A DNA stretch of 61,628 nt, taken from NCBI GenBank assembly GCA_021803425.1, contig JAJZLN010000030.1, positions 1 to 61,628 on the forward strand, given 5' to 3'. Shown here in pieces: positions 16,865-52,183 of the stretch. The position numbers and the translations under genes are program-made. Each line of letters starts with the position of its first letter. Position 1 is the stretch's first letter. Below the pieces are notes generated by a model. That model did no database searches and had not been told where the DNA came from. It saw only the letters and a list, made by a program, of their open reading frames with translations. This stretch comes from Candidatus Micrarchaeota archaeon (lineage in GTDB: Archaea; Micrarchaeota; Micrarchaeia; Micrarchaeales; CABMGC01).

Positions 16865-17257
16865 TCATTTAAGAACCATGTTGGTTGACGTGTCCGCTAC
16901 TCCTTCAAGCGCCCTTATGGCGTCTATCATACTATTCACTTTATCCATAGTCTCTGCGGTTATGAAGCATATTATATCAAAATTGCCTGACACCTCGTAC
17001 ACCTCGTTTATTCCTAGTTTTTTTATGGCTCCGGCAACGTCGGATGTTACTGATTTAGATGTTGCGACCATGACTATGGCACTGACAGTTTCGGACGTAT
17101 CTACAGTAAACTTCTTGATTATGCCAGAAGACGTCAATTTTTTGATCCTTGCACGGATCGCCCCCTCAGTAAGGCCAGTCTCCTTTGCTATTTCTACAAA
17201 CGGCTTCCTGCCGTCTGATTTAAGCGCCTTAAGAATCTGCGAATCTATGCTGTCCAT
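16865..17257 (-). CDS. Lrp/AsnC family transcriptional regulator
   Basis: MDSIDSQILKALKSDGRKPFVEIA HTH; EVSGNFDI C-terminal domain. Confidence 0.9.
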   Translation of the reverse strand: MDSIDSQILKALKSDGRKPFVEIAKETGLTEGAIRARIKKLTSSGIIKKFTVDTSETVSAIVMVATSKSVTSDVAGAIKKLGINEVYEVSGNFDIICFITAETMDKVNSMIDAIRALEGVADTSTNMVLK

Positions 17258-17303
17258 AATTAACTAAAGAAATTGTAATATTTATATACCTGAATGTATC
17301 CAT

Positions 17304-17528
17304 ATGGAAATGATTTATATGAAGTTTTCTTTGTTCAGAAAGGGTGGAAAAGAGGTAAAGGAAGAAAGCGACTCTTACAGCAGAAATGGAGACCTCAAAG
17401 CAGCAGCGAGAGAAGCTGAAGGGGCTAAAAAACGCTCCGACACCGACCCAAAGGATATAGAATACCTTAAATGGAAGATTCTTGTGGAGAAAGAAGCAAG
17501 GGAGAATGCAAAGAGAAGAATAAGATAA
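17304..17528 (+). CDS. Small hypothetical charged protein
   Basis: 74-aa ORF filling the gap between Lrp and aroF. Confidence 0.45.
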   Translation: MEMIYMKFSLFRKGGKEVKEESDSYSRNGDLKAAAREAEGAKKRSDTDPKDIEYLKWKILVEKEARENAKRRIR

Positions 17529-17534
17529 CTGTCT

Positions 17535-18563
17535 TTATTTATTATTCAACTTTCTGAGAAGCTTGTAGAGTTCATTGCTGTCATTTATGAGTTTGCCCAG
17601 CAGTTTTGGTTTTATGGCTTGGGCGCCGTCACTTAAAGCTTCCTCAGGTCTGTCATGTACCTCTATCATAAGGCCATCGGCCCCGCTGGCTATAGCTGCC
17701 ATAGACATAGGATATATCAAATCCCTCCTTCCAGTTCCGTGGCTTGGATCGACTATTACAGGAAATGGTGTCTCTTTTTTGAGTATCGGGACCGCACTCA
17801 TATCAAGCGTGTTCCTTGTCTTGGAAGGAAAAGATCCGCCAAGAGGGATTATGCCCCTTTCACAGAGGATTATTTTCCTGTTTCCTTCTGCAACTATCCG
17901 CTCTCCGAAACTCAGATATTCATCTATCTGGGAACTTGGTCCGCGCTTGAATAAAACAGGCTTGCCCTGCCTTGCGACCGATTCTATTAAATCCTGATTG
18001 AACATGTTCCTTGCGCCTATCTGAAGAATGTCCGAATATTTGGATACTATTTCCACGTCAGTTTGGCTCCTTACCTCAGTTATTGTAGGCATATCAAATT
18101 CCTTGCCGGCTTCATACAGATATTGAAGGCCGCTGAGGCCGAGGCCTTGGAATGAATGCACCGAAGTCCTTGGCTTGAATGCCCCTCCCCGCAGTATGTC
18201 TGCGCCTGCCTCTTTGACCTGCTTAGCTATCCTGAAGATCTGTTCTCTGCTCTCTATGGAACACGGGCCGGCAATATATATTGGCTTGTTCTTTCCTATC
18301 TCAAGCCTGCCCGCCTTCACAGAGATATCGTCTTGAATGTATTCCCTGCTCATCAACTTATACGGCACAGTTATATGTAGTGCTCTCGATACGCCGCGCA
18401 TTGCCCTTAGCTGATCGAAGTCAATTTTGCTTTCGTCTCCTATAATGCCTATAACTACTCTGGATTCCCCGACAGACACGTCTGCCTTCAAGCCTGAGGT
18501 TTCTATTTTGCGGATTACGCTCTTAATGTCTTTTTCAAGAGCATTTCGCTTCATTATTATCAA
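17535..18563 (-). CDS. aroF: DAHP synthase, class I-beta, with N-terminal regulatory domain
   Basis: IAGPCSIE, GGAFKPRTS, QIGARNM, DPSHGTG, EVH...ALSDG; start taken at TTG (MIIMKR). Confidence 0.9.
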   Translation of the reverse strand: MIIMKRNALEKDIKSVIRKIETSGLKADVSVGESRVVIGIIGDESKIDFDQLRAMRGVSRALHITVPYKLMSREYIQDDISVKAGRLEIGKNKPIYIAGPCSIESREQIFRIAKQVKEAGADILRGGAFKPRTSVHSFQGLGLSGLQYLYEAGKEFDMPTITEVRSQTDVEIVSKYSDILQIGARNMFNQDLIESVARQGKPVLFKRGPSSQIDEYLSFGERIVAEGNRKIILCERGIIPLGGSFPSKTRNTLDMSAVPILKKETPFPVIVDPSHGTGRRDLIYPMSMAAIASGADGLMIEVHDRPEEALSDGAQAIKPKLLGKLINDSNELYKLLRKLNNK

Positions 18564-19628: not shown

Positions 19629-19750
19629 TGGCGAGGGCGAGATTTGAACACGCGGCCTCTAGATTTCTTAGCAATCACAGCAAAATGCTCATCACTCATA
19701 AAAGCTTAGCATATGAGTCTAGCGCTCTAACCAGGCTGAGCTACCCCGCC
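19629..19750 (-). tRNA. tRNA-Met(CAT) with a 47-nt intron at 37/38 (19665-19711)
   Basis: GGCGGGG/CCTCGCC acceptor stem, CTAGA-CT CAT A-intron-A-TCTAG, GTTCAAATC T-arm. Elongator Met vs Ile2 identity not proven. Confidence 0.9.
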
Positions 19751-24313: not shown

Positions 24314-24399
24314 GGGCTCCTGGCGCAATGGTAGCGCGCCTGCATGGCATGCAGGAGGTTGCGGGTTCGAAAACTATGCCGAAAATCCCGCGGAGTCCA
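24314..24399 (+). tRNA. tRNA-Ala(GGC) with a 14-nt T-loop intron at 59/60 (24372-24385)
   Basis: CCTGC-AT GGC AT-GCAGG; TTCG/CGAA helix with a 3-nt bulge (BHL motif). Confidence 0.88.
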
Positions 24400-25923: not shown

Positions 25924-26010
25924 GGGCCTGTAGCTCAGCTTGGATAGAGCAGCACCCTTCTAAATTCTGAAGAAAGGTGATGGTCGTGGGTTCAAATCCC
26001 ATCAGGCCCG
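25924..26010 (+). tRNA. tRNA-Arg(TCT) with a 12-nt intron at 37/38 (25963-25974)
   Basis: CACC-CT TCT A-intron-A-GGTG; CTTC/GAAG helix. Confidence 0.88.
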
Positions 26011-35398: not shown

Positions 35399-37228
35399 AT
35401 GAAAATAATAGGAATAGATCTTGGAACTTCGAATTCTGCTGCAGCTGTGCTTGAGGGAGGAAGGCCGGTCCTTATACCAAGTGCGGAGGGGACCTCGCTT
35501 TATGGAAAGTCTTTTCCAAGCTACGTTGCCTTCACTAAAGAAGGAGACAGGATTATGGGAGAACCCGCAAAGAGGCAGGCGGTGGCCAACCCTGAAGGCA
35601 CGGTGAATGCCTTCAAGAGAAAGATAGGCACCGACTTCAAATATAAGATTTGGGGAAAAGATTACACGCCACAGGAACTGTCTGCAATGCTTCTGCAGAA
35701 GATAAAAAAGGATGCTGAAGCGTTCCTGGGCGAGGAGGTTAAGAAGGCCGTGATAACAGTGCCTGCATATTTTGATGACAATCAAAGGCAAGCCACGAAA
35801 GATGCAGGTGAGATAGCCGGACTTGAAGTTGTGAGGCTTGTGAATGAGCCCACCGCAGCGGCGCTTGCGTACGGAATTGACAAATTGAGCAAGGATATGA
35901 AGATATTAGTATACGACTTTGGAGGCGGCACGCTTGACGTTACTATAATGGAATTTGGAAACGGCGTGTTTGAAGTGAAGTCAACGAACGGGGATACGCA
36001 TCTCGGAGGCACGGACATGGATAATGCAATAGTAAGCTTCCTTCTTGAGGAAATAAAAAAGACGACAGGCATAGACGTCTCAAAGGACAGGCAGGCGATG
36101 CAGAGGATAAGCGAGGCTGGAGAAAAATCCAAGATAGAGCTTTCTACGACGCTGGGAAGCGAAATAAACCTACCTTTCCTGACCATGGGGCCGGGAAACT
36201 CACCAGTGCATTTCACATATAAGCTCACTAGGGCGAAGCTTGAGGAGATAGTGGTGCCCATAGTAGAAAAAACCACAAAGCCGGTGATGCAGGCGCTAAA
36301 AGACGCGCATCTTGAGCCGAACCAGATAGACAAGGTAATAATAGTTGGAGGACCTACGAGGATGCCAATAGTGCAGAGATACGTGGAGCAGCTTCTTGGA
36401 AAGAAAATTGAACGTGGAGTCGACCCGATGGAAGCCGTGGCTTTCGGAGCCGCGATACAGGCAGGGGTGCTTACCGGAGAGATAAAGGATATAGTATTGC
36501 TGGATGTGACTCCGCTTTCCCTGGGAATAGAAACTCTTGGAGGGGTAATGACCAAGATCATAGAGAAGAATACCACAATACCGATAAAAAAGACGCAGAC
36601 CTTTACTACGGCTGAAGACAACCAGCCTGCAGTGGATATCCATATCCTGCAGGGAGAGAGGACGATGTCAAAGGACAACATAGAGCTTGGAAAATTTGGG
36701 CTTACAGGAATACCGCCTGCACCGAGGGGCGTGCCGCAGATAGAGGTCTCGTTTGACATAGACGCAAATGGGATACTTCACGTTAGCGCAAAGGACAAGG
36801 CGTCGGGAAAGGAGCAGACCATGAAAGTCGTGGCCCCGAACAAGATGAGCAGAGATGAAATAGAAAAACGTATCAAGGAAGCTGAAAAGTTCGCCGAGGA
36901 GGACAAGATGAAGTTTGAGAGTTCGCAGGCGAGGAACGAGGCCGAAAGCATAGTCTACACTACAAACAAAAGCCTCAAGGAATTCAAGGATAAAATGCCT
37001 AAGGAAGTGTATGAAAAGGTTGAAGCTGCAAAGAAGGAGGTTGAAGAATCCCTTAAAGGAGATAATTACAGCGACATAAAAAGCGCTGTGGAGAAGCTGA
37101 AGGAAACGCTGCAGGAAATAGGATCGAGCATGTATGGAAAGGGAGGGGCGGAAGGAACCGGAGGGGGCGGAGATGCAGGGACCGAAAGCGGACAACCGGA
37201 CGGAAACGCAGAAGGGGGCGGAACGTGA
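35399..37228 (+). CDS. dnaK: Hsp70 chaperone DnaK
   Basis: [25 protein letters not shown]. Confidence 0.97.
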
Positions 37229-38522: not shown

Positions 38523-39137
38523 TTATTTCGCCTTTATCTCGACCTTAGCCTCAAAGTCAGAGATCTTGTAGTTAAACTCTTCGTTGGATTTTATTAAGCC
38601 TTTCGCTTTGAGGAACTCCCTGGCCAGCAGGAAATACATGAGCGCAAGCGATCTTCTCCCTTTGTTGTTGCAGGGGACGACGAGATCTACGAATTTTATC
38701 CAGTTGTCGGTATCGGACAGAGCTATTATAGGTATGCTGGTCTTGCTTGCCTCCTTTATGGCTTGGCGCTCGTTCCTTGTATCACTCAACAGCATTATCA
38801 TGGGTTCTGAATAATCCTCCCTGTTGGGGTTTGTGAATACTCCGGGAGTGACTCTCCCTACCATAAGCTTTGTGTTGGTTATCTCGGCAAATTTTGTTGC
38901 AGCGGATATTGCGTATATCCTGGATGCAGTTACCACTATATCCTTTGATTCATACTCTGAAAGGAGCTTTGCAGCAAGCCTTATCTTCTGGTCTATTGTG
39001 TTGAGATCCAGGAGGTAAAGCCCGTCTTCCCTTATCTTGAATATGTACCTTTTCATCCCTGGGGTCTTTATCTTGGTGCCTATGTGTATCCCGGCTTCAA
39101 GATATGTCGCCTGATCGATAAGCAGCTCGTTTGTCAT
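38523..39137 (-). CDS. rps2: 30S ribosomal protein S2
   Basis: YLEAGIHIGTK, PCNNKGRRSL. Confidence 0.95.
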   Translation of the reverse strand: MTNELLIDQATYLEAGIHIGTKIKTPGMKRYIFKIREDGLYLLDLNTIDQKIRLAAKLLSEYESKDIVVTASRIYAISAATKFAEITNTKLMVGRVTPGVFTNPNREDYSEPMIMLLSDTRNERQAIKEASKTSIPIIALSDTDNWIKFVDLVVPCNNKGRRSLALMYFLLAREFLKAKGLIKSNEEFNYKISDFEAKVEIKAK

Positions 39138-39183: not shown

Positions 39184-39278
39184 TGGGGTCGCCGAGATTT
39201 TCATGGGTGGAAACCCAATTTGAACTCGGGTCTTGTGCTCCCTAAGCACAGAGCCTAACCAAGCTAGCAGACGACCCC
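39184..39278 (-). tRNA. tRNA-Pro, anticodon AGG (39241-39243), with a 21-nt T-loop intron at 59/60 (39198-39218)
   Basis: GGGGTCG/CGACCCC acceptor; TGTGC-TT AGG GA-GCACA; perfect BHB (TTCA/TGAA helix, two AAT bulges, TGGG/CCCA). Confidence 0.88.
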
Positions 39279-39319: not shown

Positions 39320-39520
39320 TTATTTCCTGCTATAGTTTATTATATCATCAATTAGCTCGACATGGCTTATGAGCATCCTTCTGCAGCAGTATCGCTTTAT
39401 TCCCATATCATCGAGAACTTTGCTTGAATCCTCTTTTTTCACGTTCACTCTTTCTGAGTACTCCTCCCATTTGTCGCCGACGACTTGGCCACATGAAAAG
39501 CATCTCACAGGTATCATCAT
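39320..39520 (-). CDS. rpoN: RNA polymerase subunit N (Rpo10)
   Basis: PVRCFSCG...RYCCRRM. Confidence 0.96.
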
Positions 39521-51031: not shown

Positions 51032-52183
51032 TCAGGGCTGGAACCAATCTATCTCGTAATAGTCATTGTCGCTTCCAGCCAGCTTTATTTGCCGTATCTT
51101 GTAATAAGTGACTGAGGTTTCACGGTCGGCTATCGCTATTATAGGTTCAAGCTTCATCTTCCTGGCCGAATTTACCGCAGCCGCAAACTCGCTGCCCCCT
51201 ATGTGCTCATCTTCGCTGAAGGAAAGCATTGCATATCTGGGCTTTGAATTTTCAGGGCTTTCGGCCTCCCCCCCTTTTCTATGGTAAAGCACATAATCTA
51301 TCTCAACATCGTGCCTTGAAGGCTTGCCAGGAACGGCGAGTATGAATGTTTTCCTTACCGAATGCGCAACGCGTATTGCCCTTGCCCACTCAGATATCAG
51401 CATCTTTGACTCTTTTGGGAATACATGTATTACGTGCTTTGAGTGCACCCATGAAGCATTGTTCCTCTTTGTTGGAGTCGCGCCTGGAAAGTACACCCTG
51501 AAATGGGTTCCGAACTTGAATCCGGTCTTTATTACATAATCTTTTTCCCTCCAGTCCTTGTATACCGAATAAAGCCTGCCGAAATCCCTTCTCCTGGATG
51601 TCGCAACTTTTATCAGGTCCTCCAATGTTATGTTGCCAAGATGAAGTATGCCGTCCGACACAAGGAATATCGTTTCGTAAATGTCAAGCTTGTTCAGCTG
51701 GCCCCTGTCCGGAGCCTTGTATGAACCGTATTGGCCAAACCAAAGATCCTCATAGATTTTCTTTCCTGCTTCCCTTTCGCTTACCACGGTTATGAGATCC
51801 GACTTGAAAAATGTTCCGTTCATTTTCAATTTTGGCAGTTTTATTGAAGATCTTGGATACTCCTTGGACGGTGCGCTTTCCTCACAGCGAAACTTGAACG
51901 GCCTTTTAATCATTAAGCCCCTATCCCTCCAATCCTTGTATGTAAAGTACCTGGCAGTGAACTTCTTCGATTTCCAGAACCTTGATGCAATGCCGTTGAA
52001 AGAGATAGGCGCTCCCGCGGAAACGCATTCCGCATTCCTCACGTCCATCAGGTAAAGCACCTCCTCGGGATGAAGGACAAGCACATGCGCCGCAAGATTC
52101 CCGAAGCTCCCTTTGCGAAGTATGTCAATGCTTGACTGATCTTCAACAAAAAACTTGTTTTTAGAATACCTTATTTGTATCAT
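51032..52183 (-). CDS. endA: tRNA splicing endonuclease, three-unit (epsilon-like) form
   Basis: KTGFKFGTHFRVY (Tyr), HSKH (His) and VRK (Lys) in the middle unit; 383 aa with repeated units. Confidence 0.88.
   Translation of the reverse strand: MIQIRYSKNKFFVEDQSSIDILRKGSFGNLAAHVLVLHPEEVLYLMDVRNAECVSAGAPISFNGIASRFWKSKKFTARYFTYKDWRDRGLMIKRPFKFRCEESAPSKEYPRSSIKLPKLKMNGTFFKSDLITVVSEREAGKKIYEDLWFGQYGSYKAPDRGQLNKLDIYETIFLVSDGILHLGNITLEDLIKVATSRRRDFGRLYSVYKDWREKDYVIKTGFKFGTHFRVYFPGATPTKRNNASWVHSKHVIHVFPKESKMLISEWARAIRVAHSVRKTFILAVPGKPSRHDVEIDYVLYHRKGGEAESPENSKPRYAMLSFSEDEHIGGSEFAAAVNSARKMKLEPIIAIADRETSVTYYKIRQIKLAGSDNDYYEIDWFQP

Follow-up and report, generated by a model that had tools for sequence, protein, structure and literature searches.

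Reviews and a 2026 survey describe archaea as having neither anticodons that start with A nor enzymes that modify them (PMC8879553; bioRxiv 10.64898/2026.05.15.725136). In the survey's count, only three of the 10,517 tRNAs that GtRNAdb lists for archaea are ANN, and TadA/ADAT is said to be missing from archaea. The closest exceptions on record are ARMAN-4 and ARMAN-5, which carry tRNA-Pro(AGG) and tRNA-Leu(AAG) without the G34 counterparts (Fujishima et al. 2011, NAR 39:9695, PMC3239211). That study also reports tRNA-Ile(UAU), without tRNA-Ile(CAU) and TiaS, in ARMAN genomes. In ARMAN-2 (Candidatus Micrarchaeum acidiphilum) it describes a pre-tRNA-Pro(GGG) with T-loop introns at 53/54 and 59/60 (its Fig. 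1C), as well as weak D arms of the Pro tRNAs.

In bacteria, the corresponding anticodon is known from proL G34A mutants. The 2026 survey, citing Chen et al. 2002, describes the mutant tRNA-Pro(AGG) of E. coli as unmodified, at wild-type level and tolerated, and in Salmonella it gives fitness and elongation as unaffected (bioRxiv 10.64898/2026.05.15.725136).

The gene considered here was read from the minus strand at 39184-39278 of the window (the whole 61,628-nt stretch of DNA analysed, contig 29 of its assembly), as a 95-nt pre-tRNA-Pro(AGG). Its letters on that strand are GGGGTCG TC TGCT AGCTTGGTTA GGCT C TGTGC TTAGGGA GCACA AGAC CCGAG TTCAAA[TTGGGTTTCCACCCATGAAAA]T CTCGG CGACCCC A. Exon 1 (39219..39278, minus strand) comprises the acceptor 5' strand, the D arm, the anticodon arm, the variable region, the T-stem 5' strand and T-loop nucleotides 54-59. 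It is followed by a 21-nt intron at tRNA position 59/60 in the T-loop (39198..39218, minus strand) and by exon 2 (39184..39197, minus strand), which brings T60, the T-stem 3' strand CTCGG, the acceptor 3' strand CGACCCC and the discriminator A73. The CCA tail is absent from the encoded sequence.

The anticodon loop consists of seven nucleotides, U32 U33 A34 G35 G36 G37 A38. Since the loop has this length, contains U33 and G37 and is closed by the 5-bp stem TGTGC/GCACA, the anticodon is AGG (39241..39243, minus strand), with A34 at 39243, G35 at 39242 and G36 at 39241; A34 reads T on the plus strand. The features of an elongator tRNA-Pro are present: an NGG anticodon, U33, G37, the G1:C72 pair and, once spliced, the T-loop TTCAAAT. 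At the top of the D stem there is a U10:U25 mismatch (39269 and 39252), the one systematic mispair of the cloverleaf, common to AGG and GGG orthologues across the order. On genomic DNA, neither ARAGORN nor the Rfam tRNA model RF00005 gives a match at this gene, because of the 21-nt intron in its T-loop; when the intron is removed in silico, ARAGORN calls tRNA-Pro(agg).

The intron has the strict hBHBh' layout, CCGAG-TTCA-[AAT]-TGGGT...ACCCA-TGAA-[AAT]-CTCGG. Its outer helix is the T stem itself (CCGAG/CTCGG), its central 4-bp helix pairs TTCA (T54-A57) with TGAA, and its inner helix is TGGGT/ACCCA; the two 3-nt bulges are AA|T and AA|T. As these repeats leave the sequence alone ambiguous, the cut site was set by the symmetry of the motif. 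The fold derived by hand has an energy of -13.1 kcal/mol, essentially equal to the minimum of -13.2. Among distinct orthologous introns, which range from 11 to 45 nt in length, the central helix is perfect in 79 of 80. Many relatives have a second T-loop intron at 53/54 (33 AGG loci and 8 GGG loci); in the source genome, the one at 59/60 is the only intron of tRNA-Pro(AGG). The window also encodes a three-unit, epsilon2-type splicing endonuclease EndA of 383 amino acids (51032..52183, minus strand; PF01974 matches), which aligns over its full length with the epsilon2 EndA of ARMAN-2, PDB 4FZ2 (498 bits, E = 1e-148). This EndA, of a type able to cut at non-canonical positions, would be expected to excise the intron in the T-loop.

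Immediately upstream of the tRNA gene lies rpoN, for RNA polymerase subunit N (39320..39520, minus strand; PF01194, 105 bits), and immediately downstream rps2, for ribosomal protein S2 (38523..39137, minus strand; PF00318). The order rpl13-rps9-rpoN-tRNA-Pro-rps2 is the same in genomes with AGG and with GGG, so that the two kinds of gene are orthologues differing at position 34. What the sequence-only reading had seen in the gene is thereby borne out in every element: the AGG anticodon in a loop TT-AGG-GA closed by TGTGC/GCACA, upheld by the sequence and by ARAGORN on the spliced form; an intact gene with a perfect BHB intron, in agreement with the motif, its energy and the conserved stems of the orthologues; and a housekeeping position between rpoN and rps2, which the Pfam matches and the order common to GGG relatives corroborate.

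The source assembly is of 881 kb in 33 contigs, 93% complete and with 42.6% GC. A search with the S2 protein retrieved close relatives, every one a MAG of Candidatus Micrarchaeota, and in 68 of the 72 species-level loci retrieved in this way an AGG tRNA stands just upstream of rps2. BLAST with the 95-nt gene turned up orthologues containing introns in almost every genome of the source genus and family, without exception with AGG. We then surveyed 401 genomes of the phylum Micrarchaeota for patterns of the AGG and GGG forms. In the source family, 75 of 83 genomes have the AGG form and none the GGG form; in two sister families of the same order (95 genomes), the AGG form is absent and about 59 genomes have GGG; in the other families (223 genomes), GGG occurs in about 40, and AGG in two genuine cases beside one chance match. 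Family labels split AGG and GGG genomes perfectly, and A34 is kept in all 102 parsed loci of the source family.

No GGG anticodon arm in tRNA context exists in the 93%-complete source genome, where nine GGG stem-loops lie outside such a context; a separate Pro-GGG gene, which the sequence-only reading had named among the refuting findings, was not found there or in any of the 83 family genomes. The remaining Pro-like tRNAs, followed in 18 family genomes, are all UGG or CGG, and GGG-pattern matches in one family genome (G013) proved to be Pro-UGG read one base out of register. That a Pro-GGG gene has been missed through assembly incompleteness is possible in the source genome, but not plausibly in all 83. 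These comparisons show that the A34 tRNA-Pro has replaced the G34 form, is fixed across this Micrarchaeota family and derives from the GGG orthologue.

The two genuine cases outside the family belong to f13/g115, a genus placed in a different Micrarchaeota family; the genomes are 0.5-0.6 Mb in size (L177, G272:C11:14009-14083; L178, G383:C98). Their tRNA-Pro(AGG) is canonical and intron-less, with the backbone GGGGATG... and the loop UUAGGGA, and evidently represents an independent second G34-to-A34 switch in the phylum. Another observation concerns the family genome G026, which holds, on a 4-kb contig, an additional tRNA-Pro(AGG) whose backbone is unrelated (GGGGCAG...) and whose loop is CUAGGGC (L179, G026:C25:1083-1157); contamination, a mobile element and duplication are all possible origins.

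Position 38 (39239 in the window) co-varies strictly with position 34 across the loci L001-L122. All 16 parsed GGG genes have U38; among the 102 AGG loci there are 82 with A38, 10 with G38 and 10 with C38 accompanied by C32, and U38 never occurs. Separately, the independent AGG tRNA of f13/g115 also has U32/A38. So strict a co-change suggests a re-tuning of the anticodon loop, which a purely neutral switch does not predict.

The source genome gives 36 matches to tRNA models. Its set includes tRNA-Pro(UGG), tRNA-Pro(CGG), tRNA-Ile(UAU) and several others with non-canonical introns, and A34 is confined to Pro: the Leu, Ala, Thr, Val, Arg, Gly and Ser-GCU tRNAs found have G34. Like the tRNA-Pro gene, other intron-bearing tRNAs of this genome are missed by tRNA models or matched in part. 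In the window, a tRNA-Ala(GGC) at 24314-24399 (plus strand) is hidden by a 14-nt intron at T-loop 59/60 with the central helix TTCG/CGAA; it is missed by ARAGORN, and Rfam matches only its 5' part, below threshold. The stretch at 19629-19750 (minus strand), named 'Ser-cga' by ARAGORN, reads as a tRNA-Met(CAU) whose 47-nt intron includes a GUGAUGAG box-C-like motif, and the one at 25924-26010 (plus strand), named 'Pyl-cta', reads as a tRNA-Arg(UCU) with a short intron. Outside the window, the tRNA-Ile(UAU) carries an intron (G000:C24:65730-65840), and three further loci with non-canonical introns (G000:C27:18695-18792, C18:5837-5902 and C27:970-1038) comprise a Leu-CAA whose intron lies in the T-loop, what is probably a Leu-UAA carrying its insert in the D region, and an unassigned partial match. 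Standard models did not find Asp, Tyr, Trp and several other tRNAs in the source genome; these are probably hidden likewise by non-canonical introns.

The sequence-only reading had also pointed to TadA or CDA-fold deaminases, and none of the TadA/ADAT kind was detected in the source genome. A profile search with PF14437 gave no match there, and the single PF00383 match belongs to the homotetrameric cytidine deaminases (135 bits to TIGR01354, exceeding its cut-off), the lone CDA-fold gene: a motif scan of all its ORFs yielded no further candidate. Of 61 genomes compared, 17 of the 37 with AGG have CDA-fold genes, as do 12 of the 24 with GGG; AGG genomes that lack them include near-complete ones such as G015 (97%, 3 contigs) and G028. 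Their distribution is patchy and unrelated to AGG/GGG status. A few ORFs resemble the TadA superfamily (in G029 and G010), at 74 bits against a TadA cut-off of 150. The one in the congeneric genome G010 (L124, G010:C25:~17000-18150) is 385 amino acids long, its TadA-superfamily-like deaminase domain (74 bits) being fused to GTP cyclohydrolase I (FolE). The ADAR/ADAT1 domain PF02137 gave no matches anywhere, in a search whose prokaryotic controls included no positive one. We rejected a TadA/ADAT route in the source genome on the outcome of the PF14437 and PF00383 searches and the motif scan, and the sporadic TadA-like ORFs do not track AGG.

CCC codons are in use, as had been noted from dnaK, where 35849-35851 is indeed an in-frame CCC for the P of NEPTAA. 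Genome-wide, CCC makes up 12.6% of Pro codons in the source genome and CCU, the commonest, 32%; rps2 has four CCC and one CCU. In syntenic 20-kb ribosomal-protein regions, the proportion C/(C+U) for Pro is 0.36 in AGG and 0.39 in GGG genomes, following GC content, and in one AGG genome with 57% GC the share of CCC reaches 30% of Pro codons. Comparing AGG with GGG relatives, we found no codon-usage sign of impaired CCC decoding, as no difference is left once GC is considered. Codon usage does not discriminate between decoding mechanisms, and free use of CCC fits I34 equally.

Over 35 distinct spliced orthologues, pairing in the cloverleaf reaches 95.5%, and both partners have changed in 10 pairs, a figure to be read with the fact that the orthologue parser had admitted only loci whose anticodon, T and acceptor stems pair; none of 500 shuffles reaches this pairing, and slid controls give 39-46%. 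Within the AGG clade, stems of 7, 4, 5 and 5 bp are held by compensatory substitutions. It is vanishingly improbable against this background that A34 stems from an error in assembly or sequencing, or that the gene is a decaying, unexpressed pseudogene. Such a reading could appeal to the failure of standard tRNA finders to call the gene and to the U10:U25 mismatch in its D stem. However, the finders fail only through the T-loop intron, and the mismatch, which GGG orthologues have as well, is therefore a conserved feature and not decay. The same A in 75 of 83 independently assembled family genomes rules out an assembly error, and the BHB conserved among orthologous introns, together with the compensated stems, argues against decay. 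Comparative analysis thus presents the tRNA-Pro(AGG) gene as real and under selection.

We propose that tRNA-Pro(AGG) is probably a functional housekeeping decoder of CCY codons, whose unmodified A34 would read CCU and CCC with back-up from the UGG and CGG isoacceptors. The tRNA would be transcribed with rpl13-rps9-rpoN or just after it, and the broad-specificity epsilon2 EndA would cut the 21-nt T-loop intron at the BHB to leave a 74-nt tRNA with anticodon AGG. From an ancestral tRNA-Pro(GGG), the change of G34 to A34 was fixed at the base of the family and has been kept since, with U38 turning into A, G or C alongside. A34 would stay an unmodified adenosine and read CCU by Watson-Crick pairing and CCC presumably through A:C wobble, made tolerable by two strong G:C pairs in the CCN box; tRNA-Pro(UGG) and tRNA-Pro(CGG) would take CCA and CCG and back up the rest. 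The switch from G34 to A34 may have been nearly neutral and become fixed in small, AT-biased DPANN populations. Of the two alternatives left by the sequence-only reading, unmodified A34 or an unrecognised A-to-I activity, both are live, and the evidence favours the first: there is the precedent of proL G34A, no known wobble deaminase was found and CCC is not avoided.

Inosine at position 34 would require an unrecognised archaeal enzyme, without homology to TadA/ADAT, that yields a tRNA-Pro(IGG) reading CCU, CCC and CCA as in eukaryotes. Archaeal tRNA does undergo such a reaction elsewhere, as an unidentified enzyme deaminates m1A57 to m1I57. The G34 isoacceptor has been lost completely, as wherever I34 is used, yet the UGG and CGG partners are still present and A34 occurs only in Pro, though one would expect an I34 system to have reached further boxes too. 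The unrestrained use of CCC, up to the 30% of Pro codons seen in the GC-rich AGG genome, is in keeping with inosine, and the joint change of position 38 could mirror a new recognition requirement. But the source genome is without a TadA-like gene, the ADAR/ADAT1-type domain was not found in the search that lacked a positive control, CDA-fold genes have a patchy distribution and are just as common in GGG genomes, and the TadA-superfamily-like ORFs stay at 74 bits, against the cut-off of 150. Taken together, this makes I34 unlikely.

Less likely still, in our judgement, is that the AGG tRNA reads CCU only, CCC being read mainly by four-way wobble of tRNA-Pro(UGG), so that cognate CCC decoding would in effect be lost. 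In Salmonella, all of the CCN box can be read by one Pro tRNA with U34, as a review also states (PMC8879553). The source genome and its relatives keep tRNA-Pro(UGG); CCU is moreover the commonest Pro codon of the source genome, at 32%. However, CCC is not depleted relative to GGG-bearing sister genomes, even in ribosomal-protein regions, rps2 itself has four CCC and one CCU, and the Salmonella data in the survey indicate that an A34 tRNA works without elongation cost (bioRxiv 10.64898/2026.05.15.725136). More doubtful again is the wider proposition that the source family, the f13/g115 genus and ARMAN-4/-5 all convert A34 of tRNA-Pro to inosine through a deaminase unrelated to TadA/ADAT. If true, wobble-inosine decoding would here be met for the first time in Archaea, as a eukaryote-like strategy invented independently, and the strict co-change of position 38, which is U beside G34 and A, G or C beside A34, would belong to the recognition signature of the deaminase.

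Returning to unmodified A34 as the favoured reading, its interest lies in the avoidance of this state throughout life. Dozens of archaeal genera have long had an A34 tRNA-Pro as their only CCY-cognate tRNA, without a recognisable wobble deaminase and with CCC not avoided. The data suggest that, for the strong CCN box at least, this 'forbidden' state can be attained and that DPANN have reached it repeatedly. There is also a consequence for annotation: T-loop introns hide such genes from standard finders, and so these genomes are likely annotated without a CCC/CCU decoder and A34 tRNAs are likely under-counted in archaeal surveys.

The gene is a genuine, ancient and clade-wide exception to the rule of no A34 in archaea, and the phenomenon itself was already published. 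The premise of the sequence-only reading, that ANN anticodons are essentially absent from archaea, agrees with their rarity in surveys, but it overlooks Pro-AGG and Leu-AAG of ARMAN-4/-5 (PMC3239211). Its framing as a one-off in 'an archaeon' has to be given up, the trait being fixed family-wide (75 of 83 genomes) with a second independent origin in the phylum. In the literature, we found no publication on family-wide fixation in Micrarchaeota, on a second origin or on the co-change of positions 34 and 38.

With ARMAN-4/-5, the source lineage has much in common: both are ultrasmall DPANN with A34 in a four-codon box, without the synonymous G34 tRNA and with tRNA-Ile(UAU). Those two come from another lineage of DPANN and have Leu-AAG besides, where the source genome keeps Leu-GAG; and their report is one paragraph on two genomes, where here we have 75 of 83 family genomes, GGG ancestry and a second origin. 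ARMAN-2 matches in the strict BHB intron at 59/60 and in its epsilon2 EndA, and its intron at 53/54 recurs in many family relatives. It is reported with G34, unlike the source family with A34 and a non-U38, and the source genome has the 59/60 intron only. The source gene joins the gene architecture of ARMAN-2 to the anticodon type of ARMAN-4/-5.

Eukaryotic tRNA-Pro(AGG), turned into IGG by ADAT2/ADAT3, and bacterial tRNA-Arg(ACG) with TadA resemble the present case in the encoded A34, the missing G34 isoacceptor and the UGG/CGG partners that are kept; they differ in that such an enzyme was not found in the source genome and that one codon box is affected here. A naturally unmodified A34 is known from the tRNA-Thr(AGU) of Mycoplasma. 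With unmodified-A34 tRNAs such as proL207, the source tRNA shares an A34 in a four-codon box, and a known deaminase was not found in the source genome; its A34 would probably be unmodified as well. The proL G34A mutants (Salmonella enterica proL207; E. coli), on which the proposed decoding is modelled, carry the same GGG to AGG change in the only CCC-cognate tRNA. They are laboratory mutants of bacteria with a TadA that is inactive on that tRNA, whereas the change here is natural, ancient, clade-wide and archaeal: the source family would be their natural counterpart.
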